Notes under the pieces: model-generated
The model's input: only the letters and a program-made list of their open reading frames with translations
Told to the model about the DNA's origin: nothing
Databases searched by the model: none
Made by a program: the position numbers and the translations under genes
Assembly: GCF_008189405.1 (NCBI RefSeq)
Contig: NZ_CP043316.1
Coordinates: forward strand, 30,001-62,000
DNA length: 32,000 bases
Reading direction: 5' to 3'
Origin: Candidatus Saccharimonadota bacterium
GTDB taxonomy: Bacteria; Pseudomonadota; Alphaproteobacteria; CAJXXZ01; 1604HC
Part shown: piece after piece, positions 3,185 to 22,480 of the stretch
Position numbering within the stretch: the stretch's first letter is position 1
How the letters are laid out: each line of letters opens with the position of its first letter

Positions 3185-3599
3185 TATCGCATATATTTAA
3201 TAAAAGTAAATTTGACAAATTATATTTCTGCAAGTTTTAAAGTAAATTTAGCATAAATTTATAGGAAATTTCATTTAGGCGCAGTATATTTATTACGAAA
3301 GAAATGTATTCTGCCAAACTATTGAAAGTATTATAGAAATAAAAAGTTTATAGGAAATCCATATAGAGTTTATAAAAACAACGGTGATCAATAAATCAGA
3401 ATGAATAAATTTAATAATTTCATAAAGGTAAATTTAGTATTTTTTAATTATATTTCTCATATTATTAATTTGAAGAAATAAATATTAACCAATCTCTAGG
3501 GTAGAAATAGATTGTAAGGCTATAAAAAGCTTGAAATATAAATGCCTAAAGTATAATGTATATTTGTGTTTTCTTGTCTAAAAAAAGTGAGTATTGAGA

Positions 3600-6143
3600 A
3601 TGTTTAAGTTTATAACTAATTTATTTAAAAGGTTATTTTGGAGTTCAAATAAAGTTTTACTTCATGATTTATGGAAGATAGTTGATCAAATAGATCAAAT
3701 AGATTTAAGTGATTTAACAGATCAAGATCTTTCTGCTATGACCATTACCCTAAAAGAAAGGCTGAAAAATGGAGAGTCTGTTGATGATATCCTAGTTGAT
3801 GCCTTTGCTATTGTACGTGAGGCTGCTCATAGAGTTTTAAATGAAAGGCCATACCGCGTGCAACTTCTAGGTGGAATTGCATTGCATAAAGGTATGATAT
3901 CTGAGATGAAAACAGGTGAAGGTAAAACTTTAGTTGCTGTTTTGCCAGCTTACTTGAATGCTTTGACAGGAGAAGGTGTTCATGTTGTTACTGTAAATGA
4001 TTATCTTGCTGAGCGAGATTCGAAATGGGTAGGAAAAGTATTTAAGTTCTTGGGCATGTCTGTCGGATGTATATTGCATCATATGGGTGATGAAGCTAGA
4101 AAGCAACAATATGCATGTGATATTACATACGCTACTAATAATGAGTTAGGGTTTGATTATTTAAGAGATAATCTGAAGATGAATAATGAAGAAGTTTGTC
4201 AAAGAAAATTACATTGTGCGATTGTTGATGAAATTGATAATATTCTTATAGATGAAGCTAGAACTCCTTTGATTATTTCTGGTCCATCAGAAGAAAGTTC
4301 TGGGCTTTATAATTGGGTACAAGATATCGTTTCACAACTTAATGAATCTCATTATGAAAAAGATGAAAAAAATCATACTGTAACCTTAAATGAAGATGGA
4401 ATGCATAAAATCGAAGATGTTATGCGTGAAGAGGGTGTATTAGAAAATGATAAAACATTATATGACCATCAACATATTGCACTTGTTCACCATATTAATC
4501 AGGCTTTAAAGGCTAATACTTTGTTTGTTAAAAATGTACATTATATGGTAAGTAAAGATGAAGTAAATATTATCGATGAGTTTACAGGTAGAATTATGCA
4601 TGGGCGTAGGTATTCTGATGGATTACATCAAGCACTTGAAGCTAAAGAAAATGTTGAAATTCAAAAGGAAAATCATACTTTAGCTTCTATTACTTTCCAG
4701 CGACTATTTAGAATGTACGATAAGTTATGTGGTATGACAGGAACTGCATCTACTGAAGCAGAGGAATTTGAAAAAACTTATAACTTAAGTATTGCGGTAA
4801 TTCCAACTAATAAAAAAGTTGTAAGAATTGATCATGAAGATGAAATTTATAGAACTTTAAAGGAAAAAATTAATGCTGTAGTTGCACTTGTAAAGATTTG
4901 TAATGCGAAGAAGCAGCCAGTTTTGTTGGGAACAAGTAGTGTAGAAAAATCTCAATTGTTCGCGCAAGCTTTAACTGAGCATGGAATTTTACATAGAGTG
5001 TTAAATGCAAAAAATCATGCTAATGAGGCTAAAATTATTGCGAATGCTGGTAAATTAGGTCATGTTACTGTTGTTACAAATATGGCTGGTAGAGGTACAG
5101 ACATTAAATTAGGTGGTAATGCGAAAATATTAGTTGAAGATGCAATTAAAGATATTGAGGACTCTGAGCAAGCTGAACAAGTAAAGGTTGATATAATTCA
5201 ACAAATTGATAATGAAAGAAATGAAGTATTGAAGGCTGGTGGTTTGTTTGTTATTGGAACTGAAAGACATGAAAGCAGAAGAATTGATAATCAGTTAAGA
5301 GGTCGAGCAGGGCGTCAAGGTGATAAAGGTGAATCTAAGTTCTTCTTATGCTTGGAAGATGATTTGATGAGGATATTTGCTTCTGGAAGTCTGGATTCTT
5401 GGTTGAAAACATTAGGCCTTAAAGAGGGTGAAGCAATTACTCATAAGATGGTAACAAGAGCAATTTCCAAAGCGCAGAAAAGAGTAGAAGCACATAACTT
5501 TGATATTAGGCAGCAAATGAAAAAGTATGCAGATATTAAAGAAGATCAAATGAGCTATGTTTATTCGTATAGGAAAGATGTTTTGCTTAATTTTGATTTT
5601 ACTGATTTGCAAAAGCTAGTTGATTCAGTTGTGACAAATGCTATTCAAAACTTCTTGCCACAGAGTAAAGATTGGGATGAAGATAAGCTATCAGAATATA
5701 TTGAAAGTGTATTTGGAATAGAAGTAGATATAAAATCAGCGGTTAAAGATAATGCTATTAATCAAATTGCCCTTTCAAATTATATTATAGATAAGCTGTC
5801 TATACATTTTGAACAGTTTAATAATGAGCAAATGGTGAGTATTGCTAAAATGGGCGTTCTGCAATCAATTGATGACCAATGGAGAAGTCATGTACAGAAT
5901 TTGGATTACTTAAAACAAGGTATCAGTCTTAAAGGTTATGCACAAAAAGATCCATTAGTAGAATATAAAAAAGAATCTTTTGAGTTGTTTGAGTCAATAT
6001 GGCCTGTAATTTACGAGAATTCTATAAGAAATCTAATAAACTGGCAAAGAAATATGTCAGAAAATATGCAGAACAGCATGCCAGATAATAATGTGTCAGA
6101 AAACCCTGATATTTCAAGTATTAATGGCCTTTTCAACGAATAG
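3600..6143 (+). CDS. secA: Preprotein translocase ATPase SecA
   Basis: Full-length similarity to SecA: MKTGEGKTLVA Walker A, DEIDNILIDEARTPLIISG DEAD-like motif, TNMAGRGTDIKLGG, and RIDNQLRGRAGRQGDKGES. The ATG at 3600 is preferred over the in-frame TTG at 3594. The C-terminus has no Cys-rich zinc-finger tail. Confidence 0.97.
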   Translation: MFKFITNLFKRLFWSSNKVLLHDLWKIVDQIDQIDLSDLTDQDLSAMTITLKERLKNGESVDDILVDAFAIVREAAHRVLNERPYRVQLLGGIALHKGMISEMKTGEGKTLVAVLPAYLNALTGEGVHVVTVNDYLAERDSKWVGKVFKFLGMSVGCILHHMGDEARKQQYACDITYATNNELGFDYLRDNLKMNNEEVCQRKLHCAIVDEIDNILIDEARTPLIISGPSEESSGLYNWVQDIVSQLNESHYEKDEKNHTVTLNEDGMHKIEDVMREEGVLENDKTLYDHQHIALVHHINQALKANTLFVKNVHYMVSKDEVNIIDEFTGRIMHGRRYSDGLHQALEAKENVEIQKENHTLASITFQRLFRMYDKLCGMTGTASTEAEEFEKTYNLSIAVIPTNKKVVRIDHEDEIYRTLKEKINAVVALVKICNAKKQPVLLGTSSVEKSQLFAQALTEHGILHRVLNAKNHANEAKIIANAGKLGHVTVVTNMAGRGTDIKLGGNAKILVEDAIKDIEDSEQAEQVKVDIIQQIDNERNEVLKAGGLFVIGTERHESRRIDNQLRGRAGRQGDKGESKFFLCLEDDLMRIFASGSLDSWLKTLGLKEGEAITHKMVTRAISKAQKRVEAHNFDIRQQMKKYADIKEDQMSYVYSYRKDVLLNFDFTDLQKLVDSVVTNAIQNFLPQSKDWDEDKLSEYIESVFGIEVDIKSAVKDNAINQIALSNYIIDKLSIHFEQFNNEQMVSIAKMGVLQSIDDQWRSHVQNLDYLKQGISLKGYAQKDPLVEYKKESFELFESIWPVIYENSIRNLINWQRNMSENMQNSMPDNNVSENPDISSINGLFNE

Positions 6144-6437: not shown

Positions 6438-8570
6438 GTGCAAAAAATATTTTTATTGTTTATCACGTCATGCATGTTTGCTATGCCTACATTTGATTCT
6501 TTACAAGCTCATGATGAAAAAGTGGAGAATGCGGCCGCTAATAGTGATAGTGTTGCCAATGACAGCGTTGTAGATGAGCAGCAGCATAGGAATAGTATGG
6601 CAGACAATAGCGATACAGATTCATTATATAGCAATACAGATACATTTTCAGAGACAGATTCTTCTGCATATACATCATCTGAATCACAGCATCTTATTTT
6701 AAAATACAGTTTGCATAATAAGATCACACCAAATGCAGCAAAGCGATTTGGAAGACTAATTAATAGAGAAGGTGAAAATAGAGAAGAAATTGATGAGGAC
6801 CGTTTTGCAGAAATAGTATATATATTGCAAGATATAGAATGTGCACAAAGAAATAATATTGTTAGAAGTGCGCAATATGATTTTGATCAATTTATCAATT
6901 TGAAAAAACATTTACTTGAATTGCATAACCAATTGTACGTTTTGCAAGATTCAGAGTGGAATGATAGGAATCAGAATCATGGTGACAGTATGCTATCTAG
7001 CGATGAGCTGGCAAACCGTATGAATTTAATTCATGAGGAGAAGCTTGAATCAGATCGATTAGCAATTGCTTATCAAGAATCAAAGTTATATTGCAAAATT
7101 GAAACAGGCAGAAAAATTGAAATGTTTGGTGGTTTGGTATATAAATATGGGCTATATGATGATCCATCGATTGGTAGCAATGAATTAATTGATGGATATT
7201 TTGATTTATATGAAAATGCAAATAGAGGATTTGTTTGTAATGATCAAGTAATGGCGTGGGAGCAATTGGTTGATAGAATGAATAAAGCCTACCAGCTTCA
7301 ATATCAAATAGTGACAAATAAGCTGATTCAACAATTAATGGCTAAAGATGCACAAAAGCAGGTAATAATTGAATCCCAAGCAAAGCAAATTGAAACACAA
7401 TCAATAGATATACAAGGTTTGGAAATCAAATTACAAGAGCAAAGAAGTGAATCTCAAATGCAAATCAAAATGTTAAAAACAAAGAACACTAAACAAGAAG
7501 AAGATATTAAAGAGCAGCAAAAGCATATAGATGAAATACAGCCAAAAATGTGGGGTAATTTATATACAGACACTTCCTTAGGATTGAGATTGTTAGTAAG
7601 CGATGGAGAAAATTTGCCTATTGAGTTCACACAAAAATTTAGTATGTCGAGTAAAGCATCAATATGTTCTTCATTCTTTCTTGGAACAAGTAGTGAAAAA
7701 GATGAAAATACTAAATTACTATGCATTACAACTAGTATCCCTGCTGCTATAAATACATTTGTATATAAAGGTTATATAGATATTTATGGTGGTTTGACCA
7801 TTGAAAGCTATATGGGGGCAGATCCTGAATTAGCAGAAACAAATTATATAGAAGATATATTTCATGCAAAGCAAAGATTAGAGTTAGAGAGAAGAATTGA
7901 AGAATTAGAAGATACTACTGAAGAAATAAGATTGAAAAAACAGTATTTAAAAAATATTGAAGAGTGTAAATTAAAAACTATAAAAATCAATGCATCTATT
8001 AAAGAAAGTAAAATGGAGAAAGAGGTTCTAGATAGATTTAAAATTGCTATTGAAATGGTTGAATTGTCTGAGCAATGTATTGATCTGCCTATTAATAGTA
8101 TATATCATGGGATGAATGGTCAGAATGATTTTCAATCTTTTATGCGATTGTATAATGAATACAAGGCGTTTTTGAATAGTACATGTGGAATGAGCATGCA
8201 TGGTAGAGTTATGGCTAGAGCTGTGCCTAAAAGCAGCATAACAAAAGAACTCTATAATGAATATTGCAGGAAAAATAAAATAGATGGATTTGTTGATTTG
8301 TTTAATAAAGAATTTGAGAGTTTCGAAAAATCATATCAAGTCACAAGAAATAATAATTATAAAGCATTGTATGAAACATTAAATCAATTAAGGCAACAAA
8401 AAAGCATGATTGACGCAAAGCGTAGATATGGGAAGTTAGAGCAAGAAAACACATTAAGGTTTGAAAATTATGAGAAGCAATTATCTGAAGCAAAGGAAAA
8501 AGAAGCTGAATATAAGAAATTGCTAAGTAGTATGACTGGTAAATTTGGTTCAATCTACAATTGTCGATGA
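6438..8570 (+). CDS. Secreted coiled-coil protein, paralog A (unknown family)
   Basis: GTG start with a GAGGA Shine-Dalgarno 8 nt upstream. N-terminal Sec-type signal peptide (MQKIFLLFITSCMFAMPTFDSLQA|HD), then an acidic Ser/Asp/Thr-rich tract, then long Glu/Lys/Gln-rich heptad-like regions. Shares conserved blocks with the ORF at 10226-12451. No recognisable catalytic motif. Confidence 0.75.
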   Translation: MQKIFLLFITSCMFAMPTFDSLQAHDEKVENAAANSDSVANDSVVDEQQHRNSMADNSDTDSLYSNTDTFSETDSSAYTSSESQHLILKYSLHNKITPNAAKRFGRLINREGENREEIDEDRFAEIVYILQDIECAQRNNIVRSAQYDFDQFINLKKHLLELHNQLYVLQDSEWNDRNQNHGDSMLSSDELANRMNLIHEEKLESDRLAIAYQESKLYCKIETGRKIEMFGGLVYKYGLYDDPSIGSNELIDGYFDLYENANRGFVCNDQVMAWEQLVDRMNKAYQLQYQIVTNKLIQQLMAKDAQKQVIIESQAKQIETQSIDIQGLEIKLQEQRSESQMQIKMLKTKNTKQEEDIKEQQKHIDEIQPKMWGNLYTDTSLGLRLLVSDGENLPIEFTQKFSMSSKASICSSFFLGTSSEKDENTKLLCITTSIPAAINTFVYKGYIDIYGGLTIESYMGADPELAETNYIEDIFHAKQRLELERRIEELEDTTEEIRLKKQYLKNIEECKLKTIKINASIKESKMEKEVLDRFKIAIEMVELSEQCIDLPINSIYHGMNGQNDFQSFMRLYNEYKAFLNSTCGMSMHGRVMARAVPKSSITKELYNEYCRKNKIDGFVDLFNKEFESFEKSYQVTRNNNYKALYETLNQLRQQKSMIDAKRRYGKLEQENTLRFENYEKQLSEAKEKEAEYKKLLSSMTGKFGSIYNCR

Positions 8571-8806
8571 ATATTGTAAATAGATGTTATAATTGGGTTA
8601 TTGAAGATTTTTACTATAAATTTCATTATAACTAATATATATTATTTCATTCATGCTTTTCATTCTTGTAAATTTACTATTATATAAAACGTTAAATAGA
8701 TTGATATTCCTAATATTTAGTACACTATTGGCGAAGTTGTCTGGCTGATTATTTTCATTTTTATATGTAATCTTGATTTTTTTTTGTATTTATACGATGA
8801 TTCATC

Positions 8807-9106
8807 ATGCGCGATTGTTTAATAACCGGATATAGAATTCAATTCGGACATAATGTAAGTCATGCTAACAACAAAACCAGACGTATATTCCTTGCAAATG
8901 TACATTCTAAGTACATTCTAAGTGAAAAGATGGGTAAAGTTAAAGTTAGCATATCACACAGAGGTGAAAGAACCTTAGATAAATATGGTGGGTTGGATCA
9001 ATTTTTGTTGAATGCAAAAAATAGAAGACTTACTGTGGATGCTAAAGTTTTGAAAAGAAAATTAGCAAAGCAAACAGCAAAACAGCTTAAAAAAGCTCAA
9101 GCTTAA
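8807..9106 (+). CDS. rpmB: 50S ribosomal protein L28
   Basis: MRDCLITGYRIQFGHNVSHANNKTRRIFLANVH matches the conserved L28 N-terminus (C..TGK....G...SHA.N.T.R.F.PN.). 99 aa, as in alphaproteobacterial L28. Confidence 0.9.
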   Translation: MRDCLITGYRIQFGHNVSHANNKTRRIFLANVHSKYILSEKMGKVKVSISHRGERTLDKYGGLDQFLLNAKNRRLTVDAKVLKRKLAKQTAKQLKKAQA

Positions 9107-9209
9107 TTTTCAACAGATACGCTTATTGATATCTAAATGCATTCTAAAAGCACAATCTTAAGTATATAAGGTATTTGTATGATACGCTGAAAATGTTAGC
9201 ATTAAGTCT

Positions 9210-9929
9210 ATGAAAATTGTAACATGGAATGTGAACTCAGTAAGGGTAAGATTGCCTTTATTAGAAGAGTTAATTAAAACAGAAAACCCAGATGTAATTT
9301 TATTGCAAGAAACGAAATGTATGAATGACGTTTTTCCACGTGAGTTTTTTGAATCATATAATTATCATTTAGCTATACATGGTCAGAAAACTTATAATGG
9401 AGTTGCAATAATATCGAAATATCCTATAGAAAATATTAAGTGTAATTTAGATGATGAATCTGTAGAAGCTAGATATATTGAAGGTTTTACAAATGGAAAA
9501 TATGTTGCATCTATTTATGTTCCATGTGGGAATAAATCTCCAGAAGCGTACGAATATAAGCAGAAATTCCTTAGTCAAGTAGCAAGTCGATGGGATAGTG
9601 ATGATGAGATTGTTTTAGGTGGGGATTTTAATGTAGCAATGTCAGATAAAGATATCCAAACCCCAGAAAAATGGGTAGGAAGTGTTTTGTGTACTCCAGA
9701 AGTTCGTAGTGAAATGCAAAAAGTTTTTGATAAAAGTTTTTTTGATGTTCATGTTGATCAATTTGGGAAAAATGACTTTACATGGTGGGATTACCGTAGA
9801 CCAAATGAAGGTTTGAGAATTGATTACATATTGGTGAAAAATATTGCTGGGAAACTAGAAACTTTACGAAAATACAGGCAGATGGAGCGTCCAAGTGACC
9901 ATGTGCCAGTTATGATTACGTTAACGTGA
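9210..9929 (+). CDS. xthA: Exodeoxyribonuclease III (AP endonuclease)
   Basis: MKIVTWNVNSVRVRL...PDVILLQETK, GGDFNVA, WWDYR and SDHVPV are the conserved EEP/ExoIII family motifs. Confidence 0.9.
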   Translation: MKIVTWNVNSVRVRLPLLEELIKTENPDVILLQETKCMNDVFPREFFESYNYHLAIHGQKTYNGVAIISKYPIENIKCNLDDESVEARYIEGFTNGKYVASIYVPCGNKSPEAYEYKQKFLSQVASRWDSDDEIVLGGDFNVAMSDKDIQTPEKWVGSVLCTPEVRSEMQKVFDKSFFDVHVDQFGKNDFTWWDYRRPNEGLRIDYILVKNIAGKLETLRKYRQMERPSDHVPVMITLT

Positions 9930-10175
9930 ATGTATATTTTATACCCAATTGTGACTGCATTAAGTTGAAATAGTACAATAAATAAAATAGCAAAATGTTT
10001 TTGCAAATCTATATAAGTTTATATAGAGTTGAGCTAGATTAGCTGCTCAAAAATATTGCAAATATTAGCATGATTCCCTTTTCTAAGCATATGAATTATC
10101 ATGATTTATACTTTTTATATTATGTGATTTATAGTAGACTTTATACGATTTTATAGCAGGTTAGTAAAAATTTAC

Positions 10176-10205
10176 TTGACTTTTGATCATTAAATGTACT
10201 ATAAG
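10176..10205 (+). promoter_or_regulatory. Candidate sigma70-type promoter for paralog B
   Basis: TTGACT (10176-10181), an 18-nt spacer, then TATAAG (10200-10205). A GAGGG Shine-Dalgarno lies just upstream of the ATG at 10226. AT-rich DNA yields many chance -10-like hexamers, so this is tentative. Confidence 0.3.
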
Positions 10206-10225
10206 ATTAGACAAGTGAGGGACAA

Positions 10226-12451
10226 ATGAAAAATATATTTTTATTGTATTTGGTTTTTGCACAAGTGTATGCTGGCTCAGTAGGAGATCTGGATGAAATG
10301 TCTGCGGGGGTGTGTTCTTCAATTAATAGAGAAATGTTAAGCCATGATGAGTCAAGTAATGCTAGTAGGGGTTATTTTGCAGTACATAGTGTTTCTACGA
10401 CGCCTGGCTTTTCTCCGATGTCTAGCTTTTGTTCGACGCCTAGGTCATCTTGTACACAATTTTATCCATTTAGCGATTTATCATTAGACCATTTAAGTGA
10501 TGTTGATGACACATTTGATTCTGCTATACATTATTTTATTGAATATACGAAGCATATGATTGGAAGTATTGTTAAAGCTGAATCTCGTGAATTGATAAAA
10601 ATATTAACACTGAAAAGTTATGAAGAGTCAGATAAGATAATGCAAAAGATAAGGAATAAGGAGAATTATTGCTTTGAGGGATTTGTAAGTATTAAAGAAT
10701 CGTTATTAGCGAAACATTATAAATTACATCGTATGCAATCTGCTGAATCTATGGTTCGTAATAAATATGGTGATATTGAAGGTTTGGCGCGCACAGAATT
10801 AGTAGATCGTATTGCAATAATGAATGAAATGAATCAATATATGGACCGTATTTCATTGCAGCATGATTTATTGCAGGGGTATTCTGAAATTGATTATGAA
10901 AGAAAGATGGATATCATTGGCGGGGCGATATATTCTGAGTATGGTAGCTGTAGGCTTAGTAGTACATCTTCTAATGCAGGCGAAAACGGCATTAGTGATG
11001 AGAATGATAGTCTTAGCTGTGATGATTCTAATCCATTGTCATTGAACTATGTATTGCATGAAGATGAAGTTAGAAGATTTATTTATAAAGATCAAGGTGA
11101 AGCATGGAATAGTTTAGTAATGAATATGGATAATAGTTATAGGATAAAGTATGAAAGTATTACTAATAAGCTGATCATGCAATTGGTGAAGGAAACTCAG
11201 GCAAGTAGGGATATAATCAAGGCACAGCAAGCTATTATTGATATGCAGCAAGGTAAGATCGAAGAAATTACACCAAGAATGCAAGGGAATTTATATAAAG
11301 GCATGCGCGATGAGCTGATCCTACTAGTTAGAGATGGGGATCCTTTGCCTATTAAGTTGACACATATGGGCAAAACTTATGATGGGCCTGAGATAGAAGA
11401 ATCAGTATTTTATATTGAAACAAGTGGAAAGGCACATGAGAGAGTTGAGCTATGTAAATCTAGTGTAAATATTTCTGATGATTATGTTAGATATGATATA
11501 GCAATTGATATTTATGGTAATCTGACAGTTAAAGCTCATACTGTGTCAATTCCTAATGTAGCTGAATGTGGCTCTAATAGTATATTTAATGCGCAGAGCA
11601 TTATGGATATTAGGGAAATTTCACAAAAGAAATTACAAAGTAAAAAAGTTGAAATGATTGATCAAGAGATAAATGAGATTCAAAATAGTATTAAGTTTAA
11701 TGAGAGTGAAGTGCAAAAGTATAATCAGCGCTCTATAGAAGGAGCAAAGGAAATTGAAGAAATAAAAACACAAATAGAGAAAAACAATGCAGAGATAGCA
11801 GAAATTCAAGAAAATATTAAAGAACTCCAAGATGATATTAATGAAAAGAATAAACAGGCCAAGGAGATGATAGATAAGAATAGAGATTCAGATGTAGAGA
11901 TAAAGAAGATAACAAATCAGATTGAGAGATGTAAGAAAAGTATTAGTAGATTTGATACAGAAATCAAAGAACATAATGCAAAAATTCAAGAAAATAAAAA
12001 ATCAGCTAAGGAAGATGAAAAGAAAGCGAAGATTTATGAGGAAACAGCTAAGTATCATGAATCATTGATTAAAGAATGTAAAGAAAAATCTGAGAAATGC
12101 AGTGCAGAAATCAAAGAATTCGAAATTAATATTAAAGATGCAGTAAGTGCTAATAAAGAAAGGGGAGAAAAGATTGATGAATTAAAGGAAGAAGTGCAAG
12201 AAGTACAAGAGAGTATTAATGAAGAAAATGAATCAGTAGAGAAAAAAGAATCAAAGATTAGAGAATTAAATAAAAGAATAGAATCTAAATTAAATCTTGA
12301 TTTGTGGAAAAAGAATGAATCTGAATATGTAGCTAAGGTTAAACAAGGAAATGAAAAACTTGCGGAACTTGAGAGCAAGAAAGAAGAAGAAGTGAGGAAA
12401 CTTCAAGAGATTAACAGTCAGTTCAATGATTTTTTTTTACAGGAGCAATAG
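10226..12451 (+). CDS. Secreted coiled-coil protein, paralog B (unknown family)
   Basis: Signal peptide MKNIFLLYLVFAQVYA|GS, a Ser-rich N-terminal tract, and a roughly 260-aa Lys/Glu-rich C-terminal coiled coil. Conserved blocks shared with paralog A (A first, B second): KIEMFGGLVYKYG / KMDIIGGAIYSEYG; AWEQLVDRMNKAYQLQYQIVTNKLIQQLM / AWNSLVMNMDNSYRIKYESITNKLIMQLV; QPKMWGNLY...LRLLVSDGENLPIEFT / TPRMQGNLY...LILLVRDGDPLPIKLT; IDIYGGLTIE / IDIYGNLTVK. Confidence 0.75.
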   Translation: MKNIFLLYLVFAQVYAGSVGDLDEMSAGVCSSINREMLSHDESSNASRGYFAVHSVSTTPGFSPMSSFCSTPRSSCTQFYPFSDLSLDHLSDVDDTFDSAIHYFIEYTKHMIGSIVKAESRELIKILTLKSYEESDKIMQKIRNKENYCFEGFVSIKESLLAKHYKLHRMQSAESMVRNKYGDIEGLARTELVDRIAIMNEMNQYMDRISLQHDLLQGYSEIDYERKMDIIGGAIYSEYGSCRLSSTSSNAGENGISDENDSLSCDDSNPLSLNYVLHEDEVRRFIYKDQGEAWNSLVMNMDNSYRIKYESITNKLIMQLVKETQASRDIIKAQQAIIDMQQGKIEEITPRMQGNLYKGMRDELILLVRDGDPLPIKLTHMGKTYDGPEIEESVFYIETSGKAHERVELCKSSVNISDDYVRYDIAIDIYGNLTVKAHTVSIPNVAECGSNSIFNAQSIMDIREISQKKLQSKKVEMIDQEINEIQNSIKFNESEVQKYNQRSIEGAKEIEEIKTQIEKNNAEIAEIQENIKELQDDINEKNKQAKEMIDKNRDSDVEIKKITNQIERCKKSISRFDTEIKEHNAKIQENKKSAKEDEKKAKIYEETAKYHESLIKECKEKSEKCSAEIKEFEINIKDAVSANKERGEKIDELKEEVQEVQESINEENESVEKKESKIRELNKRIESKLNLDLWKKNESEYVAKVKQGNEKLAELESKKEEEVRKLQEINSQFNDFFLQEQ

Positions 12452-12489
12452 AAGAATCTTCTAGATGTGATGGTCAAAAATTATTGAAC

Positions 12490-12777
12490 ATGAAGCTAGA
12501 AAAATTACGACGAGAGATGCAAGATATAAAGCTTGCAAAGTTTGAATTGACAGTTAGCGCTCAGAAACTCGAGGAAAATATGGGTACGTTCGCATCGTTA
12601 CGTAGATTGATTGCGGTGGCATATGAGAAAAAAGCAGAAGGGAGTTTAGATGATGCAGATTATTATGAGATTGTTAGTGCTGTTTTAAAAATTCATGAGC
12701 AAACTAAAGAGGCATTAAGTTATAATATGATGAGAGCAGATGAAATAATAGAAATGGCGCGACGCAGTATATTATAG
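12490..12777 (+). CDS. Small helical hypothetical protein, possibly the detached C-terminus of paralog B
   Basis: ATG at 12490 (in-frame TTG at 12484). Its reading frame is open back to 12430, inside the T9 run that precedes the paralog B stop. The sequence (KLEKLRREMQDIKLAKFELTVSAQKLEENM...) continues the coiled-coil character of paralog B. Confidence 0.4.
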   Translation: MKLEKLRREMQDIKLAKFELTVSAQKLEENMGTFASLRRLIAVAYEKKAEGSLDDADYYEIVSAVLKIHEQTKEALSYNMMRADEIIEMARRSIL

Positions 12778-13941
12778 TGAATGTGCTAATTGGTTAATAG
12801 GGGAATAAAGTTAGGGCAATGTAAACTGTGTATACCTGTGTTTTTAGATTTGTATTGAGCATAATGAATTTAAGCTTTCTATATTATATTCAATAATTTG
12901 TAAGCTTCAAACACAACTGCGGTTATCTGATCAATATAATTCACATGTCTATAGCATCATAATACACCAACCATTATGGTGAAGTTGATTATAATATGTT
13001 TCTTGTATATTAAAATATGGAAATATAGTAATAATAGTATATTTAATTTGCATGTTTCTTCAATAATTTTATGTAGTATGCATATAAGTTAATGCAAAAT
13101 AGCATGCTAATCAAAAAAGACTTCAAGTTAAATTATAAGCTAATGATCAGGTTAATTAAAATATAAATAATTGATCATATAGTATTTTATAATTATATAA
13201 TAAAGATATATTCTAGATAAATATTAAAAGCAAACAATAAAATAGTAAGTAATATCTCATAAAAAGCAAAATAATTTAAAGAAAGCACAAGAATATAATT
13301 ATTCAGCATTCATTTGAATTGACGATATGATAATATATATATCAGCACAATCTGTTGTATGCTTTATAAATTGATTGTTTATGAATACATGATTATTTAT
13401 CTACCTGTAGCAGATCAAGATCAATTCAATTGGTTTGTATTTTTATAATATATTATCTATATATGTAGCCTATAATTAGTTTTTATTATTAATTCAAGGA
13501 ATTATAGATTATTTTATGCATTAAAAATCAGTTATAATTTTTATATAAATAGTGTGTTTGGAGCCACTGTACAGTTTTATTCCATTTAAAATTATATGTT
13601 ATAACAATTACTTTAATTAGCATGGAGTGAAATGAGTGTTTATTGCATATATAGTTCATGCTTTTTATGCAGTATTAATTATATTGTACATTGCTTGTAT
13701 ATTTCGAATCATACTATACTATTTCAAATCATATTGTTTCTTTATATATAATCTTTTTAATCATACTTTCAATGCATATGATATTAGAGTAGTGGTTTAT
13801 ATTTAGAGTAATAACTATTTTCTATTAATGTATATAACTATGAAGTTTGTGCTTTTATAAATTATATTTCTATTGATTGCTTTACTTGTTGTTCTATCTA
13901 TATTCGTTTGATTTGCATGAAGGATGATTGATATCAGATTT

Positions 13942-14469
13942 TCATGATTGGCATTGATTTTCATTAATCCATGTTACTATTAAGTCATTCCATGCAGATA
14001 AGTCTGTTTTTTCTAATACGTAATGTGCAACATTTTCACCAGGGTGACTAATGCCAAGTCTGACACGGTGGTAATCTTGTCCAATTGCAGCTGAAATGCT
14101 TTTCAATCCGTTATGCCCACCAGTTCCTCCACCTTCTTTGAATTTGATAGTATGGTTCGCTAAATTTAAGTCATCATGAATAACTAAAATCTCTGATGGT
14201 TTGCATCTATTCTTACTTAAATAAGATAAAACTGCTAATCCAGATGAATTCATATAAGTAATTGGTTTGATCATATTGAAGTTTTGATTTTTCGAAATAA
14301 TGAAGTTGGATTTCTTATTCGCTGCAAACTCAGATAGAAGAAACTGCTTTTTTAATATATCTAAAAATATAAATCCTAAATTATGTCTAGTATGGTCATA
14401 TTGTGTTCCAATATTGCCTAAACCAACTATTAATTTATAATCCTTTATATTTATATGAGATTTGATCAT
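13942..14469 (-). CDS. pth: Peptidyl-tRNA hydrolase
   Basis: LIVGLGNIGTQYDHTRHNLGF, the catalytic His region, and GGHNGLKS are conserved Pth motifs. There is a 4-bp overlap with the upstream rplY, the classic rplY-pth pairing. Confidence 0.92.
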   Translation of the reverse strand: MIKSHINIKDYKLIVGLGNIGTQYDHTRHNLGFIFLDILKKQFLLSEFAANKKSNFIISKNQNFNMIKPITYMNSSGLAVLSYLSKNRCKPSEILVIHDDLNLANHTIKFKEGGGTGGHNGLKSISAAIGQDYHRVRLGISHPGENVAHYVLEKTDLSAWNDLIVTWINENQCQS

Positions 14470-15026
14470 TCTTTAGGTTTAGATGGAGATATAATAGTTG
14501 CAAGAGTTGTATTTGCAGTAAAGCTTAATACTTGAACATCTGAAGGTATATTTAGATCTTTTAATCTAATTGCATCTCCAATATTACTTTGAGCTAAATC
14601 GAATGTCACAGCTTCAGGGATATTGTTTGAGGAAACAACAGATTTAATACCTTTTGTTAAAACATTCAATATTCCACCTAATTTCATTCCTGGACAAAGT
14701 TGTTTGTTTTTAAATGCTATAGGCAGTGTAACTCTAATTTTTTGATCTGGCTCAATTACAAACAAATCAATATGTAATGGTTTTCCAGTTAATGGATGAT
14801 ATTGCACATCTTTTATAAGTACTTTATAGGGTTTGTCGTCTAATGCCACATCAACCTTAGAGATCATAAAATTTGGAGTGGTCAATAATGTTTTAGCATC
14901 CTTATAGGACATATTTGCACATTCTTGATTTGATTTTGAGTAAATTACTACAGGAACCATATCTTTAGCTCTAATATTTTTTGCTGATTTAGTTCCAAAC
15001 ATTTCTCTTGAAAAAAGATTTATCAT
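14466..15026 (-). CDS. rplY: 50S ribosomal protein L25 / general stress protein Ctc
   Basis: 186 aa, with the L25/Ctc N-terminal pattern (R...GTKSAKNIRAKDMVPVVIY) and a beta-rich body. Position immediately upstream of pth supports the call. Confidence 0.85.
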   Translation of the reverse strand: MINLFSREMFGTKSAKNIRAKDMVPVVIYSKSNQECANMSYKDAKTLLTTPNFMISKVDVALDDKPYKVLIKDVQYHPLTGKPLHIDLFVIEPDQKIRVTLPIAFKNKQLCPGMKLGGILNVLTKGIKSVVSSNNIPEAVTFDLAQSNIGDAIRLKDLNIPSDVQVLSFTANTTLATIISPSKPKE

Positions 15027-15136
15027 AATAAGTATAATTTAACCCGTATTGGAGTAAATTTCAATGATTGAATTAATAATTATAAAATTTATATATGGAT
15101 TTAAATAAATTCACATATATATTTAAATGAATTGAA

Positions 15137-15211
15137 GGCGAATAACCGGTCTCGAACCGGCGACCTCTAAAGCCACAATCTAGCGCTCTAACCAACTGAG
15201 CTATATCCGCC
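15137..15211 (-). tRNA. tRNA-His (anticodon GUG) with encoded G-1 and C73; no encoded CCA
   Basis: The reverse complement folds as a cloverleaf: G-1, acceptor GCGGATA/TATTCGC, D arm GCTC-AGTTGGTTA-GAGC, anticodon arm CTAGA-TTGTGGC-TTTAG (GTG), T arm GCCGG-TTCGAGA-CCGGT, discriminator C pairing with G-1. Confidence 0.9.
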
Positions 15212-15388
15212 ATCGATATAAGAATACAAAACAAATATTAGAATGACAAGTAGAATGAAGGTAATGAGTAAAAGCATGATTGTAATAATTACAAAAATAG
15301 AGCAGGTAAATAATTCTAAATAATATAAATTCATACTGAAAATACTTGAAATTGTTAAAAATATTAATTTTATGCTAAAATTGCCTTC

Positions 15389-15916
15389 ATGAAGAAAATA
15401 ATAGTATTAGTCGGGCCTTCAGGGTCTGGAAAAACATCATTAGCTAATATCCTTTCTTCTAAAGGTTTTTATAAACCAATCACATGTACAACTAGAGAAA
15501 AAAGGGTAGGAGAGGAAGATAGTGTTGATTACTTTTTCCTTTCAGAAGTAGAATTTATAAAGAAAAAAGACAACCAAGAGTTAGTAGATTACGATAAAGT
15601 TTTTAGCACATGGTATGGTGTTGAACGAAAAGAATTTGAAAAGAATGATCAAAATGTTGTGATGCCTGCTACTTTTATAGGGGTTGCAAATCTGAGAAAG
15701 CATTTCGATAATGTGCAATCTATTTTTCTGAACCCTCCTAGTGAAGAGATTTTAATTCAAAGAATGAAGGAGAGAATGATGTCTCCAGAAATGATAGAAA
15801 AACGAATTAAAAATATACGATTTGAAATGTTAAATTTGAATAAGTGCGATTACGTGATATCGACAAATCAAACTATTGAAAAATCGTGTAAAGATTTAGA
15901 AAGGATAATATGTTAG
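15389..15916 (+). CDS. gmk: Guanylate kinase
   Basis: P-loop VGPSGSGKTS and TTREKRVGEEDSVDYFFLS (compare TTR.PR.GE.DG.DY.F.S) are diagnostic of Gmk. 175 aa. Confidence 0.9.
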   Translation: MKKIIVLVGPSGSGKTSLANILSSKGFYKPITCTTREKRVGEEDSVDYFFLSEVEFIKKKDNQELVDYDKVFSTWYGVERKEFEKNDQNVVMPATFIGVANLRKHFDNVQSIFLNPPSEEILIQRMKERMMSPEMIEKRIKNIRFEMLNLNKCDYVISTNQTIEKSCKDLERIIC

Positions 15917-17172
15917 ATAATAATTATAATTTGAAAATTAGAAATAATGTTGTGTTAGCTCTAGGTTTAGTTAGTGCTGCTATATATGCTTTATGCTCAC
16001 ATACATTGATTTATTGGTTGTCAGACCTCGATATTCCTACAAAAGCGTTAGGATTTGTGAGTTTGATATATATAATTCAAGCGTTAAAGATTTTTTGGAT
16101 TCCTGTTTTTGAGAAATTCAATGTTCCATTGTTAAATAAATTTTTAGACAGAAGAGCAAGTTGGATTTTCTTGTGTATTTTAGTATCTGGAAGCTTGATA
16201 TTATATATCAGTTTTTTACACCCTTTGCGTAATATGTATGTATTTGCAACGTGTATTGCTATAGCAACTTTTGGAATGTCTATTATGGATACTTTATTAA
16301 GAGCACAGATCATGAAATTGGCTATTGATAATGATAAAGATCAAACTACTATTATGGGGTTAGGTGCTTTTGGTTTTAGGATTGGTATGTATATATGTAT
16401 CAATATTTATTTCTTATTATCTTTATGCATAGCATGGAAATATATTTATAGAGTATCAGGAGTATTAATTATACTTTCATCTTTACTACTATTCATATTG
16501 CCAAAAGTGACAGAATTAAGCAAAGAAAAATCATTGAAAGAATTGCTTATAGTTCCATACCAATCATTTCTTAAGAAGAATAAAAAATATATTTGGAGTA
16601 TTGTAGGATTTATGGTGTTTTTTAGGTTGCAAGACAAACTATTAGCGCCTACATTCTATAAATTCATTAGTGGCTTGAAACCAGCGAGTTCTTTGCCATT
16701 TATTTCACAATTAGGTATTAAGCCAATTTTCTCATTCTATAAATTCATTAGTGGTCCTATCATGGCATTTAGTGTGTATTACAGCATTAAATTCTTAAAA
16801 AAGCATAGTTACAAATCTAATGCATTTATAAGTGTTCTAGTGCATTCATTAACTTGCTTGCCTTTGCTAATCTTAAATATGCAAAAAACACATATTCCAC
16901 TATTTATTTTGTTTACATTGTTATTAGAGAAGCTTGTTAGAGGGTTTTCAAGTAACGTATATTACTTATACCAATCTAAGTTTTGTGAAAAAGAGCATGC
17001 AGCAGGTCAAATTGCCATGTTATCATTCTTAGAAGCTATGTCTGGGGCTATTTTCGGATTGTCTTCAGGATATATAGTTGCATATTTTAGCTGGACAGCA
17101 TTATTTATATTGGGTACTTTTATTAGTTTGCCAGTTCTGTTTTTCATTAAAAAACTACCAAATGATTTATGA
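15910..17172 (+). CDS. ampG: AmpG-family MFS permease (muropeptide-type transporter)
   Basis: 420 aa with about 12 helices. The N-terminal block ALGFVSLIYIIQALKIFWIPVFEKF resembles the AmpG motif (..G.FSL...PY.LKFLWSP..D.). There is a 7-bp overlap with gmk. Confidence 0.6.
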   Translation: MLDNNYNLKIRNNVVLALGLVSAAIYALCSHTLIYWLSDLDIPTKALGFVSLIYIIQALKIFWIPVFEKFNVPLLNKFLDRRASWIFLCILVSGSLILYISFLHPLRNMYVFATCIAIATFGMSIMDTLLRAQIMKLAIDNDKDQTTIMGLGAFGFRIGMYICINIYFLLSLCIAWKYIYRVSGVLIILSSLLLFILPKVTELSKEKSLKELLIVPYQSFLKKNKKYIWSIVGFMVFFRLQDKLLAPTFYKFISGLKPASSLPFISQLGIKPIFSFYKFISGPIMAFSVYYSIKFLKKHSYKSNAFISVLVHSLTCLPLLILNMQKTHIPLFILFTLLLEKLVRGFSSNVYYLYQSKFCEKEHAAGQIAMLSFLEAMSGAIFGLSSGYIVAYFSWTALFILGTFISLPVLFFIKKLPNDL

Positions 17173-17298: not shown

Positions 17299-18153
17299 CT
17301 AGTTAATAATAAGGTCTGTACGTTTGATATTACGCATCAAAGTATTCCACTCATTCTTTGACATGTTTGTATCATCTTTTGTGATTTGTTTGCCATTTGC
17401 TAGTTCTTGTACAACTTTTAACCCTTCTTTAGATAAAGAGCAATGATTATAATTATTGAATGCGTCATATGTGAATGGAACCCATAAACTGAGAATTTCT
17501 TTGATCTTTAATGCATATTCACGTATTTCAAACTGAGCGTACGATGATGTTCTTAATTTAATAAATCTGAGCAAGTTATTTAAATCTATTTTCCAGTAGA
17601 ATTGTGTATATAGATTTGTCGGAAGTATTCCTCTAGAAATTTCTCGCGCAACTCCATCTTCGATTAAATTGGTGTAAGTTTCAAATGATTCTGAATTGAC
17701 TCTATTAATCTGCTGTTGTGCATTTTCTCTGATCGGTATATCTAGATCGCTTCCTCTAGCTTGTCTATTACTCATATCTTGCCCTGTGATATTGTCGATT
17801 GAAGGACAGTAAAAATCTCTTTCCATCTCAGAATATCTAGCAGAATATTCATTTACATTCGCAGTTCGATGTCTGAGCCATTGTCGAGCTACAAAAATTG
17901 GAGCTTTGATATGTAATTTGATTTCGCACATTTCAAATACAGAAGTATGTTCATGTCTTAGTAAATATCTGATTAAGCTTTTATCACTGCTAACAGATTT
18001 AGTGCCTTTACCATATGAAATTCGAGCAGCCTGTACAATTGCTGAATCGTCTCCCATATAATCAATAACTCTAATAAACCCCTTATCGAGGATGCTCATT
18101 TCTTCCCCAATAATTTGTTCCATACTTTCGACACAAGTTCGTTTTGTTTCCAT
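17299..18153 (-). CDS. thyX: FAD-dependent thymidylate synthase ThyX
   Basis: ThyX signature RHRTANVNEYSARY (RHR..S....S.RY), plus FIRVIDYMGDDSAIVQAARISYG. The ATG at 18153 (METKRT...) is preferred. The tracked ORF extends 38 codons further upstream to 18267 with no homology support. Confidence 0.9.
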   Translation of the reverse strand: METKRTCVESMEQIIGEEMSILDKGFIRVIDYMGDDSAIVQAARISYGKGTKSVSSDKSLIRYLLRHEHTSVFEMCEIKLHIKAPIFVARQWLRHRTANVNEYSARYSEMERDFYCPSIDNITGQDMSNRQARGSDLDIPIRENAQQQINRVNSESFETYTNLIEDGVAREISRGILPTNLYTQFYWKIDLNNLLRFIKLRTSSYAQFEIREYALKIKEILSLWVPFTYDAFNNYNHCSLSKEGLKVVQELANGKQITKDDTNMSKNEWNTLMRNIKRTDLIIN

Positions 18154-18268
18154 ATGAAAATTAAAGCATGAAAGTTTATCTTGTGTCCATATGAAGATTA
18201 AAACATGAAATAACTTGGAGTAATAACTGTAATCAGCATAGAACAATAGATGTAATAGTGGTAGCAAA

Positions 18269-19561
18269 TTACTTGAAGTGTTTTTTAATTAATGCTTTGA
18301 AATGCTTCCCTCGTTCTTCGAAATTTTTATATAAGTCGAATGATTTAAACCCTGGTGAAAATATTATAGTTTCATTTTGATGGTTCTTTGACAAACAAAT
18401 CACTGCATCTTCTAGATTAGTATAAATAGAGCAATTTATTCCTATACTTAATAGGATTTTCTGTAATTTATATTTGTTTTCTCCAATAATAAATGCATGC
18501 TTAATATTTTGAGCGGGAAGGTCTTTGATATATTGCTCACAGATATTGCTATTAACCCCTCCAGTGATCCAATAACTTATTTTATGTTTTTGTAGTATGT
18601 AGTTAGAGCATGCAAGGTTTGTGCTTTTGCTGTCATTAATAATGATGGGATTGTTTTGTACGATTTCTTGCCTATGCGCTAAAGTTTGAAAATTAGCACA
18701 TGCTTTGTGAATATCTTGCGGTGTTATACTCAGTTTTCTACACACATTATAGGCAGCTGAAAATGCAATATAAGGAATATGATGCAGATACTTCTGGTAG
18801 AACTCTATTGTTTGTTTTGGGGCATTTTGGATATGATTTTCTGGTGCATTATGGATGTAATGATTGTTTTGGTGTTTGCAGGTTAGGTTTTCATTAATAA
18901 GCAAATATTTTGATAATGTAGCGAGTTTATATTTTGCGTTTGCATAATCTTCATATGAATTATTATAGGACTCTAAATGATGGTTTTTGGAAATATTCAA
19001 TATTACTCCGATGTCAAATTTAGTAGAAATTCTTTCTAACTGAAATGATGATAGCTCAATGATTGGAATTTCATTATCTTTAAGGTTATCTACTGTACAT
19101 CCTAAATTTCCTATAGCCTTTGCAGGAATATTATTGGCATTTAAAATATGTTCAATTAAGGAAACTGTAGTAGATTTGCCAAAAGATCCAGTACATGTAA
19201 TTTTTATGTTTTTATTCTGAGAGTATTGGAAGAAAATATCTATTTCATTATATATTTGCTCATTTGCTACTAATTTAAGTAAGGGATGTGATCTGATTCC
19301 AGGGCTGAGTACTATTTTTGAAATGCATTGAGCATGATTAGTGGCATTATCACAATTGCTGGATTGCATATGATTACTATTGGGTTGTGCTTTATTATTG
19401 TTGTTAATTTTATTAATTATGAAGGTACGATATCCCATTTTCTGCGCTAGTTCTCGTTTTTTTAGATCATCATCCCATATGCAGAATGTTTGATTATTAG
19501 CTTGAAGTATTTTTGCGCAAGATTGATTAGATATACCAAATCCTAATAAAAGATATGTCAT
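18269..19561 (-). CDS. murD: UDP-N-acetylmuramoylalanine--D-glutamate ligase
   Basis: Mur ligase P-loop TGSFGKSTT, a GFG-type N-terminal Rossmann start, and position directly after mraY with a 4-bp overlap. It contains an Asn/Gln-rich low-complexity insertion (NNNNKAQPNSNHMQSSNCDNATNH). Confidence 0.85.
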   Translation of the reverse strand: MTYLLLGFGISNQSCAKILQANNQTFCIWDDDLKKRELAQKMGYRTFIINKINNNNKAQPNSNHMQSSNCDNATNHAQCISKIVLSPGIRSHPLLKLVANEQIYNEIDIFFQYSQNKNIKITCTGSFGKSTTVSLIEHILNANNIPAKAIGNLGCTVDNLKDNEIPIIELSSFQLERISTKFDIGVILNISKNHHLESYNNSYEDYANAKYKLATLSKYLLINENLTCKHQNNHYIHNAPENHIQNAPKQTIEFYQKYLHHIPYIAFSAAYNVCRKLSITPQDIHKACANFQTLAHRQEIVQNNPIIINDSKSTNLACSNYILQKHKISYWITGGVNSNICEQYIKDLPAQNIKHAFIIGENKYKLQKILLSIGINCSIYTNLEDAVICLSKNHQNETIIFSPGFKSFDLYKNFEERGKHFKALIKKHFK

Positions 19562-22023: not shown

Positions 22024-22233
22024 TACTTTAATAATGGATTAATGAAATAGAAAATGATAGATATGCGATGAATATATGGCAGGGAATGTTAGATTTAGAA
22101 ATCTGTTTTGATAATACACATACTTTGTAACTAGTAATGATTTTACAAAATTAGTGAGCAATTAATTTGAACTAAAAAGGCTGAATATTAATGTAATAAA
22201 TACTATTCATTACATTATGAAATTCTAGATTAA

Positions 22234-22478
22234 TGTAGGCTTGGCAGGAACCACGAAGTGCACTGTGCCAACCGAAATGAAATGTAGGCTTGGCAGGAAC
22301 CACGAAGTGCACTGTGCCAACCGAAATGAAATGTAGGCTTGGCAGGAACCACGAAGTGCACTGTGCCAACCGAAATGAAATGTAGGCTTGGCAGGAACCA
22401 CGAAGTGCACTGTGCCAACCGAAATGAAATGTAGGCTTGGCAGGAACCACGAAGTGCACTGTGCCAACCGAAATGAAA
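22234..22478. repeat. Perfect tandem repeat, 5 x 49 bp, abutting the tRNA 3' end
   Basis: The unit tgtaggcttggcaggaaccacgaagtgcactgtgccaaccgaaatgaaa starts at 22234, 22283, 22332, 22381 and 22430. All copies are identical on direct reading. A sixth partial copy (22479-22495) is the 3' end of the adjacent tRNA itself. Confidence 0.97.
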
Positions 22479-22480
22479 TG

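Follow-up and report, generated by a model that had tools for sequence, protein, structure and literature searches.

What are two large, related and exported-looking genes doing downstream of secA in the genome of a bacterium that lives wrapped in its host's mitochondrion? The genes, here called A and B, lie in a window of 32,000 nucleotides (contig NZ_CP043316.1, positions 30,001 to 62,000; all positions below are counted from the first letter of this window) from Candidatus Cytomitobacter primus, a Holosporaceae endosymbiont of Diplonema japonicum with a genome of 622,378 bp; an identical protein product is encoded on OX638200.1 (GCA_951805245.1). Cytomitobacter is among the very few bacteria enveloped by a host mitochondrion. 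Symbionts of this type have lost their energy metabolism and import ATP from the host. They are closely apposed to the host's single mitochondrion, which often wraps C. primus cells wholly, and the spacing between symbiont and mitochondrial membranes is reproducible; a 2026 volume electron microscopy study stated as unresolved whether specific tethering complexes exist at this interface. A preliminary description of A and B, made from the letters of the window, had presented them as a pair of secreted coiled-coil proteins of an orphan family in a streamlined symbiont genome, and a genome of 622 kb agrees with the last point. As a tentative answer, to which we give somewhat less than an even chance, we propose that A and B belong to a Cytomitobacter-restricted family of fast-diverging, Sec-exported, non-enzymatic elongated proteins that would serve as host-facing stalk-and-head binders.

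6438-8570, forward strand: gene A, 710 aa, GTG start
10226-12451, forward strand: gene B, 741 aa, ATG start

Both entries come from the list of open reading frames (ORFs) and correspond exactly, in coordinates and length, to the preliminary description; public annotation gives the same products. A and B are intact and are true paralogues. They align by BLASTP at E=5e-33 with 28% identity (A147-520 against B148-494), and the motifs previously quoted as evidence of a homologous core were found. A Shine-Dalgarno sequence precedes both starts by 6-8 nt (GAGGAG at 6 nt for A, GTGAGGG for B). By our own arithmetic, with a stop frequency of about 0.079 per codon, a 710-codon open frame has a chance of about 1e-25 in 30%-GC DNA. 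As far as sequence evidence goes, the persistence of frames of 2.1-2.2 kb in such DNA, with ribosome-binding sites (RBSs) present, shows that both genes are under selection.

The genes are not a mere pair, as first described: their family has four members or more. When 1.84 billion representative proteins were searched by HMMER with a profile built from the A+B core, four proteins came back in total: A, B, a third C. primus paralogue, P0003 (492 aa, E=1.7e-45, encoded between a phosphoglucosamine-mutase-like gene and argS), and a homologue from Ca. C. indipagum, P0004 (594 aa, E=4e-4, locus tag FZC35_00375). The core profile was made free of coiled coil because full-length A had matched only itself in a word-indexed search, coiled-coil words having probably swamped the candidates. 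A four-sequence, coiled-coil-free profile found nothing beyond P0003 and P0004 in a collection of 5.8e9 proteins, and a scan of GTDB species genomes returned the C. indipagum locus as the only further one. The description as an exported-looking orphan family therefore holds, all four members coming from Cytomitobacter and none matching a curated domain. P0004 is encoded between pth and rpmB, the position of B in C. primus. The rpmB-secA interval, which in C. primus is the site of A and xth, is in C. indipagum a 1.75-kb, ORF-free and tandem-repeat-rich stretch (12874-14625 of that locus, L003; repeats of 93 bp x2.2, 9 bp x10.8 at 100%, and 29 bp x2), in which tblastn at E<=1 found no remnant of A or xth; xth is absent from that locus. 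In four further related small genomes, located by a Pth search (ERZ25333236, ERZ25333217, MAG CP060235 and Nesciobacter abundans), secA, rpmB and pth share one neighbourhood in 4/4 cases, with local rearrangements, and neither tblastn nor a profile HMM run on six-frame ORFs found a family member at the syntenic loci.

The members that do exist have diverged strongly. When C. primus is compared with C. indipagum, full-length identity is 48-80% for the flanking housekeeping proteins, against only 32-37% over 63-114 residues for the family; within C. primus, the nearest relative of A is P0003, at 37-43% over about 280-380 aa. At 28-37% identity between paralogues and about 32% between orthologues, dN/dS would be saturated. 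Four members, empty relatives and low identity next to that of the neighbours together mark the family as genus-restricted, patchy and very fast-evolving. By this comparison it evolves much faster than the neighbouring genes, in line with the rapid evolution that the preliminary description had supposed, and proteins that face the host typically diverge faster than their neighbours. The same patchiness would also fit functionless ORFs that decay or expand selfishly, with the likeness to Hsp70 discussed below arising from chance or composition: what now fills the rpmB-secA gap of C. indipagum, the expected site of a copy of A, is repeat-rich DNA without ORFs, the structure models are of low confidence, and pseudogenes and hypothetical proteins make up 22-50% of the genes in these symbiont genomes (genome papers). 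We regard this explanation as highly improbable, since without selection the odds against open frames of 490-740 codons in 30%-GC DNA would be astronomical, the RBSs are intact, the signal-peptide pattern and core motifs are kept across species despite saturation elsewhere, and three intact copies are retained in a 622-kb genome.

How are these proteins built? The parts of A and B, as predicted from sequence and from AlphaFold2 (AF2) models, are the following (a slash marks the predicted cleavage point; SBD, substrate-binding domain).

6438-6509, forward strand: signal peptide of A, residues 1-24 (MQK and a 16-residue hydrophobic region, LQA/H; AF2 helix 2-14)
6510-6722, forward strand: disordered tract of A, residues 25-95, acidic and Ser/Thr/Asp/Asn-rich (no secondary structure, pLDDT ~30)
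6723-7490, forward strand: helical region of A, residues 96-351 (helices 117-180, 188-236 and 249-351)
7530-7817, forward strand: beta module of A, residues 365-460 (IDEIQPKMWGNLY...LLVSDGENLPI...YIDIYGGLTIES), a candidate Hsp70-SBD-beta-like module
7824-8561, forward strand: C-terminal helical extension of A, residues 463-708 (helices 463-520 ... 616-708)
10226-10273, forward strand: signal peptide of B, residues 1-16 (MK and a hydrophobic region, VYA/G)
10274-10510, forward strand: low-complexity tract of B, residues 17-95, Ser/Thr/Pro-rich
10511-11200, forward strand: helical region of B, residues 96-325, homologous to that of A, with the signature helix ITNKLIMQLV (312-321)
11276-11545, forward strand: beta module of B, residues 351-440 (RMQGNLY...LLVRDGDPLPI...IDIYGNLTVKA)
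11630-12442, forward strand: coiled coil of B, residues 469-739, Glu/Lys/Gln-rich and heptad-periodic

All four members show a common layout: a signal peptide, an acidic Ser/Thr tract predicted to be disordered, a helical stretch of about 250 aa, a variable coiled-coil spacer and a beta module of about 90 aa. The Ser/Asp/Thr-rich disordered tract noted earlier is borne out by composition, serine, threonine, aspartate and asparagine making up 54% (A) and 46% (B) of residues 51-100, and by the AF2 model, in which A15-80 has no secondary structure; in B, the tract holds an 18-bp x2.9 repeat (10392-10443). The best-conserved element of the family stands at the end of the helices (W..L...M..Y.L.YQ.(I/V)TN.LI..L) and is kept across species, as is the beta-module motif L(L/I)V..G..(L/M)P. 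The signature helix of A reads W274..Y285..VTNKLIQQLM (292-301), and the helical region of A includes a Glu/Lys/Gln-rich spacer that is absent from B. From signature helix to beta module, this spacer comes to about 0 aa in both B and P0003, to about 40 aa in A and to about 140 aa in P0004, where it stems from a 108-bp x3.8 tandem repeat whose 94% matches point to a recent expansion. Past a junction of conserved sequence, I(D/E)E(I/L).P(K/R)M, comes the beta module, which has 7-8 predicted strands in two AF2 models. P0003 and P0004 end 25-40 residues past it, without a long tail, and A and B add 230-270 aa. Glu/Lys/Gln-rich coiled coils, which the preliminary description had assigned to both proteins, are found in the tail of B (heptad-periodic segments 469-602 and 626-739) and are less well supported in A, whose tail is predicted to be helical with only residues 674-706 above shuffles for coiled coil.

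In searches of Pfam, NCBIfam and PHROGs, all four members gave only coiled-coil noise (AAA_13, ATG16, tropomyosin, SMC/Rad50), far below cut-offs, and sequence and profile searches of the PDB gave no match, FSP1 and GFP at E~1 being noise. The likeness of B to SMC, Rad50 and tropomyosin is compositional: residues 470-740 give sub-threshold matches through their heptad-rich Glu/Lys/Gln sequence, but residues 478-734 score 36.6 bits against a cut-off of 567 (TIGR02168), and B has no ATPase heads. Most likely, the family consists of elongated, rod-like, non-enzymatic binding or scaffold proteins that act outside the cytoplasm.

The placement outside the cytoplasm is predicted from the N-termini, which we scored with a heuristic for a charged n-region, a hydrophobic h-region, the -3/-1 sites and the absence of a later transmembrane (TM) segment. 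The pattern of a Sec signal peptide cleaved by signal peptidase I (SPase I) was found in 4/4 members, and thus in both A and B, for which Sec-type N-termini had been described. Each begins M-(K/Q)-(K/N/T), continues with an uncharged hydrophobic stretch of 14-19 residues and has no further TM segment; in A and B, the n-region carries K and the h-region comprises 16-18 uncharged residues. The -3/-1 sites read LQA/H in A, VYA/G in B, LCA/M in P0003 and VSG/G in P0004. Applied to the other genes of the window as a control, the heuristic gave 1 false positive (the P-loop of Gmk) among about 17 soluble cytoplasmic proteins, and it also flagged one obvious lipoprotein (LIGC), which served as positive control. 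All four members are accordingly predicted to be Sec-exported. Over the roughly 100 residues that follow, they are unalignable low-complexity Ser/Thr/Asp sequence; that the signal-like N-terminus is conserved all the same suggests that export is under selection.

Two other kinds of exported protein were considered. A bacterial lipoprotein, processed by SPase II, was ruled out, as the lipobox is not conserved: a lipobox-like ITSC occurs only at residues 9-12 of A, too near the N-terminus, and none occurs in B, P0003 or P0004. No C-terminal outer-membrane beta-barrel translocator of an autotransporter or trimeric autotransporter adhesin (type V secretion system) was matched by Pfam in the family members; the C-terminus is helical in A and B and short in P0003 and P0004, and its last residue is in no case aromatic. 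But might the hydrophobic segment stay in the membrane? As an uncleaved signal-anchor, it would hold the protein at the inner membrane; the disordered tract would then act as a flexible leash for the helical rod, which would reach into or across the periplasm. The cleavage motifs are heuristic calls, the best site of A has Leu at -3, h-regions of 14-19 residues could span a membrane, and a Ser/Thr-rich linker after a hydrophobic segment would be typical of membrane-tethered proteins. However, small residues at -3/-1 come straight after the h-region in 4/4 members, the h-regions are shorter than a typical TM helix and the n-region has only 1-2 positive charges, which makes an anchor improbable.

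What, then, could the beta module be? By eye, its motifs TSLGLRLLVSDGENLPIEFTQKFS and YIDIYGGLTIES resemble segments of DnaK, FDIDADGILHVSA among them: L(L/I)V..G..LP stands against (L/I)IERNTTIP, and IDIYG.LTV against FDIDANGIL.V. The size of the module, about 90 aa, and its 7-8 strands likewise recall the SBD of Hsp70, an eight-stranded beta-sandwich at DnaK ~393-502 with a helical lid behind it; a candidate counterpart of the lid is the long helix that comes next in A and B (helix 463-520 directly after the module of A; the coiled coil from residue 469 in B). A first hhalign comparison of the family module with a single DnaK sequence gave P=0.23, and the idea was provisionally rejected, then retested with an alignment of 13 Hsp70 SBDs: that of E. 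coli DnaK (100% identical to E. coli records) and 12 others from plasmid or chromid records (diverse DnaK, HscA, HscC and other Hsp70). Against this profile, the family module scores 21 (pairwise E 0.017-0.021) over 79 collinear columns. The aligned span, Hsp70 columns 15-103, corresponds to DnaK ~403-491 (beta1/2 to beta7) and includes both motifs. None of 150 column shuffles reached the observed score (maximum 19.3), whereas 1 of 100 shuffles of 6-column blocks did; the reversed profile scored 13.0, and 43 unrelated 140-aa segments from the window averaged 11.1 (SD 1.9, maximum 16.5). Taken singly, the four members score 16.2, 18.1, 13.4 and 18.4 in one common register, B alone aligning to columns 86-104.

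The structural comparison that the preliminary description had proposed, AlphaFold models searched with Foldseek, gave a divided result. Against a target set of 350,542 PDB chains, the model of full-length A (pLDDT 47) found DnaK or BiP at all of ranks 1-7, with a best E of 0.059 and a probability of up to 0.90, followed at lower ranks by Ssb, further BiP entries, an Hsp70-Hsp40 complex and the SBD of HscA. The model of the beta module alone gave nothing specific in the same search, with xyloglucanase, NTF2-like and FP-domain matches at E>0.7 and TM<0.5. Under the profile alignment, the seven strands of this beta-only model fall one-to-one on DnaK beta1-beta7, whose boundaries we take to be those of structure 1DKZ.

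Several results speak against an Hsp70-like head, and to that extent against the reading that we favour. The confidence of both AF2 models is low (pLDDT 44 for the beta module alone, 47 for full-length A), DnaK is found only at rank 11 with the beta-only model, and all Foldseek E-values exceed 0.05. The Pfam HSP70 HMM (PF00012) matched neither the full proteins at E<=1 nor the isolated modules at E<=10, and P0003 and P0004 have no lid-like helical tail. Moreover, the sequence and structure evidence ultimately draw on one and the same sequence signal. With a sequence p of about 0.01 and a weak structural ranking, we consider it at roughly even odds that the module has an Hsp70-SBD-beta-like fold. 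The earlier statement that no known domain can be recognised thus holds for curated matches and may be wrong for this module.

Even if the fold is confirmed, the family proteins are not Hsp70s, because no nucleotide-binding (ATPase) domain was matched by Pfam or NCBIfam in A, B, P0003 or P0004. In the model of A, the N-terminal 350 residues are taken up by the signal peptide, the disordered tract and helices. The family proteins also lack the interdomain linker, and what comes before their module is a signal peptide plus some 330 aa of unrelated sequence, partly disordered and partly helical; unlike an Hsp70, they would be exported to an ATP-free compartment, and P0003 and P0004 would do without a lid. 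Among known systems, the Hsp70 SBD is nonetheless the closest by possible fold, in spite of the failing nucleotide-binding domain and HMM match, with a similarity at the edge of detection and homology unproven. On its own, the SBD of an Hsp70 binds peptides with high affinity and independently of ATP. A full-text literature search found no precedent for a chaperone client-binding domain split from its ATPase, given a signal peptide and used outside the cytoplasm.

How might such a protein work? In the reading that we favour, the family members would be exported through SecA/SecYEG and cleaved by signal peptidase I, leaving a flexible acidic linker at the start of the mature protein. The helices would form a rod or stalk, probably dimeric, whose length differs between paralogues and species, and the beta module would be a ligand-binding head, an ATPase-less module of the Hsp70 type that possibly grips extended peptides with high affinity and independently of ATP. 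The proteins could reach the cell surface, or be shed, by way of the reduced type II secretion system (T2SS)/type IV pilus (T4P)-like system or of outer-membrane vesicles, and there bind polypeptides of the host or mitochondrial surface, which would contribute to the close and evenly spaced apposition of symbiont and mitochondrion. Duplication of paralogues, changes in spacer length and repeat expansion would tune reach and specificity. We favour host-facing action because of the extreme divergence, the repeat-driven length variation together with the lineage restriction, and the otherwise unexplained, evenly spaced apposition.

The known equipment of these symbionts leaves room for such proteins. 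Sec, a reduced T2SS/T4P-like system and a type VI secretion system (T6SS) in modified form are kept (George et al.; genome papers), each genome encodes 44-106 proteins with signal peptides, and many secreted effectors without assigned function have been proposed (genome papers). In the genome papers, secreted hypothetical proteins are counted, and the present family is not described.

Other observations weigh against host-facing action. The signal-peptide call itself is a prediction of a heuristic. We saw no outer-membrane anchor or translocation signal, be it a conserved lipobox, a beta-barrel or a terminal aromatic residue, and the T2SS of these symbionts is described only as reduced (George et al.); by default, a Sec substrate would therefore end up in the periplasm. 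The family is absent at the syntenic loci of four related genomes, including that of Nesciobacter abundans, which likewise lives in close association with the host mitochondrion, so the family is not a general or sole tether. Finally, strong endosymbiont drift alone can account for fast divergence.

Would the proteins then stay in the periplasm and serve the bacterium's own envelope, as an ATP-independent holdase like Skp or SurA, or as a periskeletal polymer or spacer like CrvA and CrvB? The signal peptides, the lack of a detectable signal for crossing the outer membrane and the only partial T2SS would all agree with this, and ATP-independent peptide binding by an isolated SBD would suit an ATP-free periplasm. 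CrvA and CrvB of Vibrio cholerae are reportedly a paralogous pair of exported coiled-coil proteins that form a periplasmic (periskeletal) polymer. As paralogous, Sec-exported coiled-coil proteins with signal peptides, they have exactly the design of A and B and are the closest known case in that respect, but there is no homology, and the organisms and their cell biology differ. The periplasm of related Holosporaceae is also stocked with abundant lineage-specific proteins: Holospora obtusa has an 89-kDa invasion-tip protein and the 63-kDa PRP1, periplasmic proteins of novel sequence with signal peptides that are then exposed or secreted toward host structures. Belonging to the same bacterial family and being, like A and B, lineage-specific with signal peptides, these are the closest by biology. 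They show no homology, our profile search having matched only Cytomitobacter in a library drawn from public genomes whose inclusion of Holospora is unverified, and the dimorphic infectious form with expanded periplasm that characterises Holospora has not been described for Cytomitobacter. A housekeeping role in the envelope would not lead one to expect a family confined to two species, missing from close relatives and extremely divergent; a spacer that varies from 0 to about 140 aa is hard to square with a ruler spanning the periplasm, and homology to Skp, SurA or CrvA is lacking. We regard a periplasmic, own-envelope role as the most serious alternative, if on balance an unlikely one.

Less likely still would be soluble effectors released into the host cytosol through the T2SS-like system, vesicles or lysis, where they would act as coiled-coil scaffolds on the cytoskeleton, on membranes or on chaperone clients and not as tethers bound to the envelope. 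Coiled-coil-rich, fast-evolving orphans are common among the effectors of intracellular bacteria, the genome papers propose many secreted effectors, and one related genome has ankyrin-repeat proteins, a classic effector class, in the same neighbourhood (see below). However, Sec signal peptides are atypical for T6SS substrates, the T2SS is incomplete and the family has no eukaryote-like domains, which leaves this explanation with a small chance.

The most specific version of host-facing binding is also the boldest, and we think it improbable: the proteins could be exported, ATPase-less Hsp70-type peptide clamps on coiled-coil stalks of adjustable length, displayed on the symbiont envelope or shed from it, that seize extended segments of host polypeptides and hold the mitochondrion around the bacterium, with a module derived from the symbiont's own dnaK or hscA and since altered nearly past recognition. 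Their targets might include proteins of the mitochondrial outer membrane or precursors in transit, and the wrapped mitochondrion would set the ATP/ADP translocases of the symbiont beside its energy source. Should the Hsp70-SBD-like module prove true, the client-binding domain of a chaperone would have been separated from the ATPase, equipped with a signal peptide and put to new use outside the cytoplasm, which would show orphan symbiosis genes arising from housekeeping parts. Otherwise, the family is an ordinary lineage-specific secreted orphan, mainly of interest for the diplonemid symbiosis. The solid part of the finding is ordinary for a symbiont genome, lineage-specific exported coiled-coil proteins being a known kind among intracellular bacteria. 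Three large, intact genes for exported, rod-like proteins in 622 kb nevertheless make a short candidate list for machinery at the mitochondrial interface; the other natural reading of the three is an unusual periplasmic scaffold or holdase.

The surroundings of A and B comprise the following genes.

3594-6143: secA, the gene preceding A
8807-9106: rpmB, between A and xth
9210-9929: xth, between rpmB and B
12484-12777, forward strand: orf97, a small helical ORF of 97 aa, 32 nt 3' of B (95 aa in public annotation)

The order is secA, A, rpmB, xth, B, orf97, about 1.2 kb of non-coding DNA and then pth/rplY on the opposite strand, in agreement with the description of A and B as bracketing rpmB-xth downstream of secA. 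From the secA stop to the start of A are 294 nt, with a TTGACA box at about 6381, roughly 50 nt 5' of A; scans of this AT-rich DNA for promoters and terminators were uninformative (42 promoter-like sites against 56 expected). Base composition (about 30-32% GC) and GC skew of A and B are like those of the neighbouring genes, and nothing therefore suggests a recent foreign origin. The product of orf97 is all-helical, without signal peptide, domain or homologue, and has no counterpart at the C. indipagum locus. It is possibly co-transcribed with B, and may be either its partner or an artefact of annotation; that it is a frameshifted piece of B or a fragment of the family was ruled out, as it has no similarity to the family. 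The stretch from orf97 to pth (12778-13941, about 1.16 kb, 21.5% GC) has no ORF of at least 60 aa and gave no tblastn match to the family proteins; it may be the remains of a fully decayed gene.

In two of the related genomes, the same neighbourhood holds other ORFs of note. In ERZ25333236 (locus L005), a 622-kb Cytomitobacter-like genome, the large orphans are ankyrin-repeat proteins: two, of 680 aa and 582 aa, are encoded at 1-1477 and 17997-19745 of the locus, the former directly upstream of secA, the latter with a signal-peptide-like N-terminus and near-identical 33-aa repeats, and an ankyrin-repeat protein of 246 aa is encoded near rplY. They represent another class of putative host-interaction genes, inserted among the same housekeeping genes. 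In ERZ25333217 (locus L006), a 619-kb Cytomitobacter-like genome, ORFs of 236, 88 and 238 aa stand beside an intact secA (14179-16025 of the locus); two of the three match SecA_DEAD, and together they have the appearance of a tandem copy of secA that has become a pseudogene.

Elsewhere in the window, a protein of 166 aa (30266-30766, reverse strand), whose lipoprotein signal is of textbook form (MKFLACLVAIFLIGC), is encoded with a 4-bp overlap to tssK (28977-30269, reverse strand), whose product, TssK, matches PF05936 at E=9e-34. Immediately upstream of tssK is the canonical position of the gene for the T6SS outer-membrane lipoprotein TssJ, which has been reported missing from all these symbionts (George et al.). 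The 166-aa lipoprotein has no Pfam match and could be either TssJ in diverged form or a lipoprotein unrelated to it. A 153-aa ORF 5' of the lipoprotein gene (30763-31224, reverse strand), with an internal hydrophobic segment and a sub-cut-off match to SPOR (peptidoglycan-binding, E=0.018), may belong to the same T6SS-proximal operon. The ThyX ORF (17299-18267, reverse strand) reaches back to a TTG and would encode 322 aa, against 284 aa in public annotation; the N-terminal extension is probably not translated. A perfect 49-bp x5.4 tandem repeat (22232-22495, 100% matches), more GC-rich than its surroundings, yields two spurious overlapping ORFs of 113-116 aa and abuts the 3' end of a tRNA-Ile gene (22480-22553, reverse strand), with an overlap of about 15 nt. 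The anticodon of this tRNA, according to ARAGORN, is TAT (UAU) rather than the usual TilS-modified CAU, which suggests that AUA is read without the help of lysidine, as happens in certain other reduced genomes.

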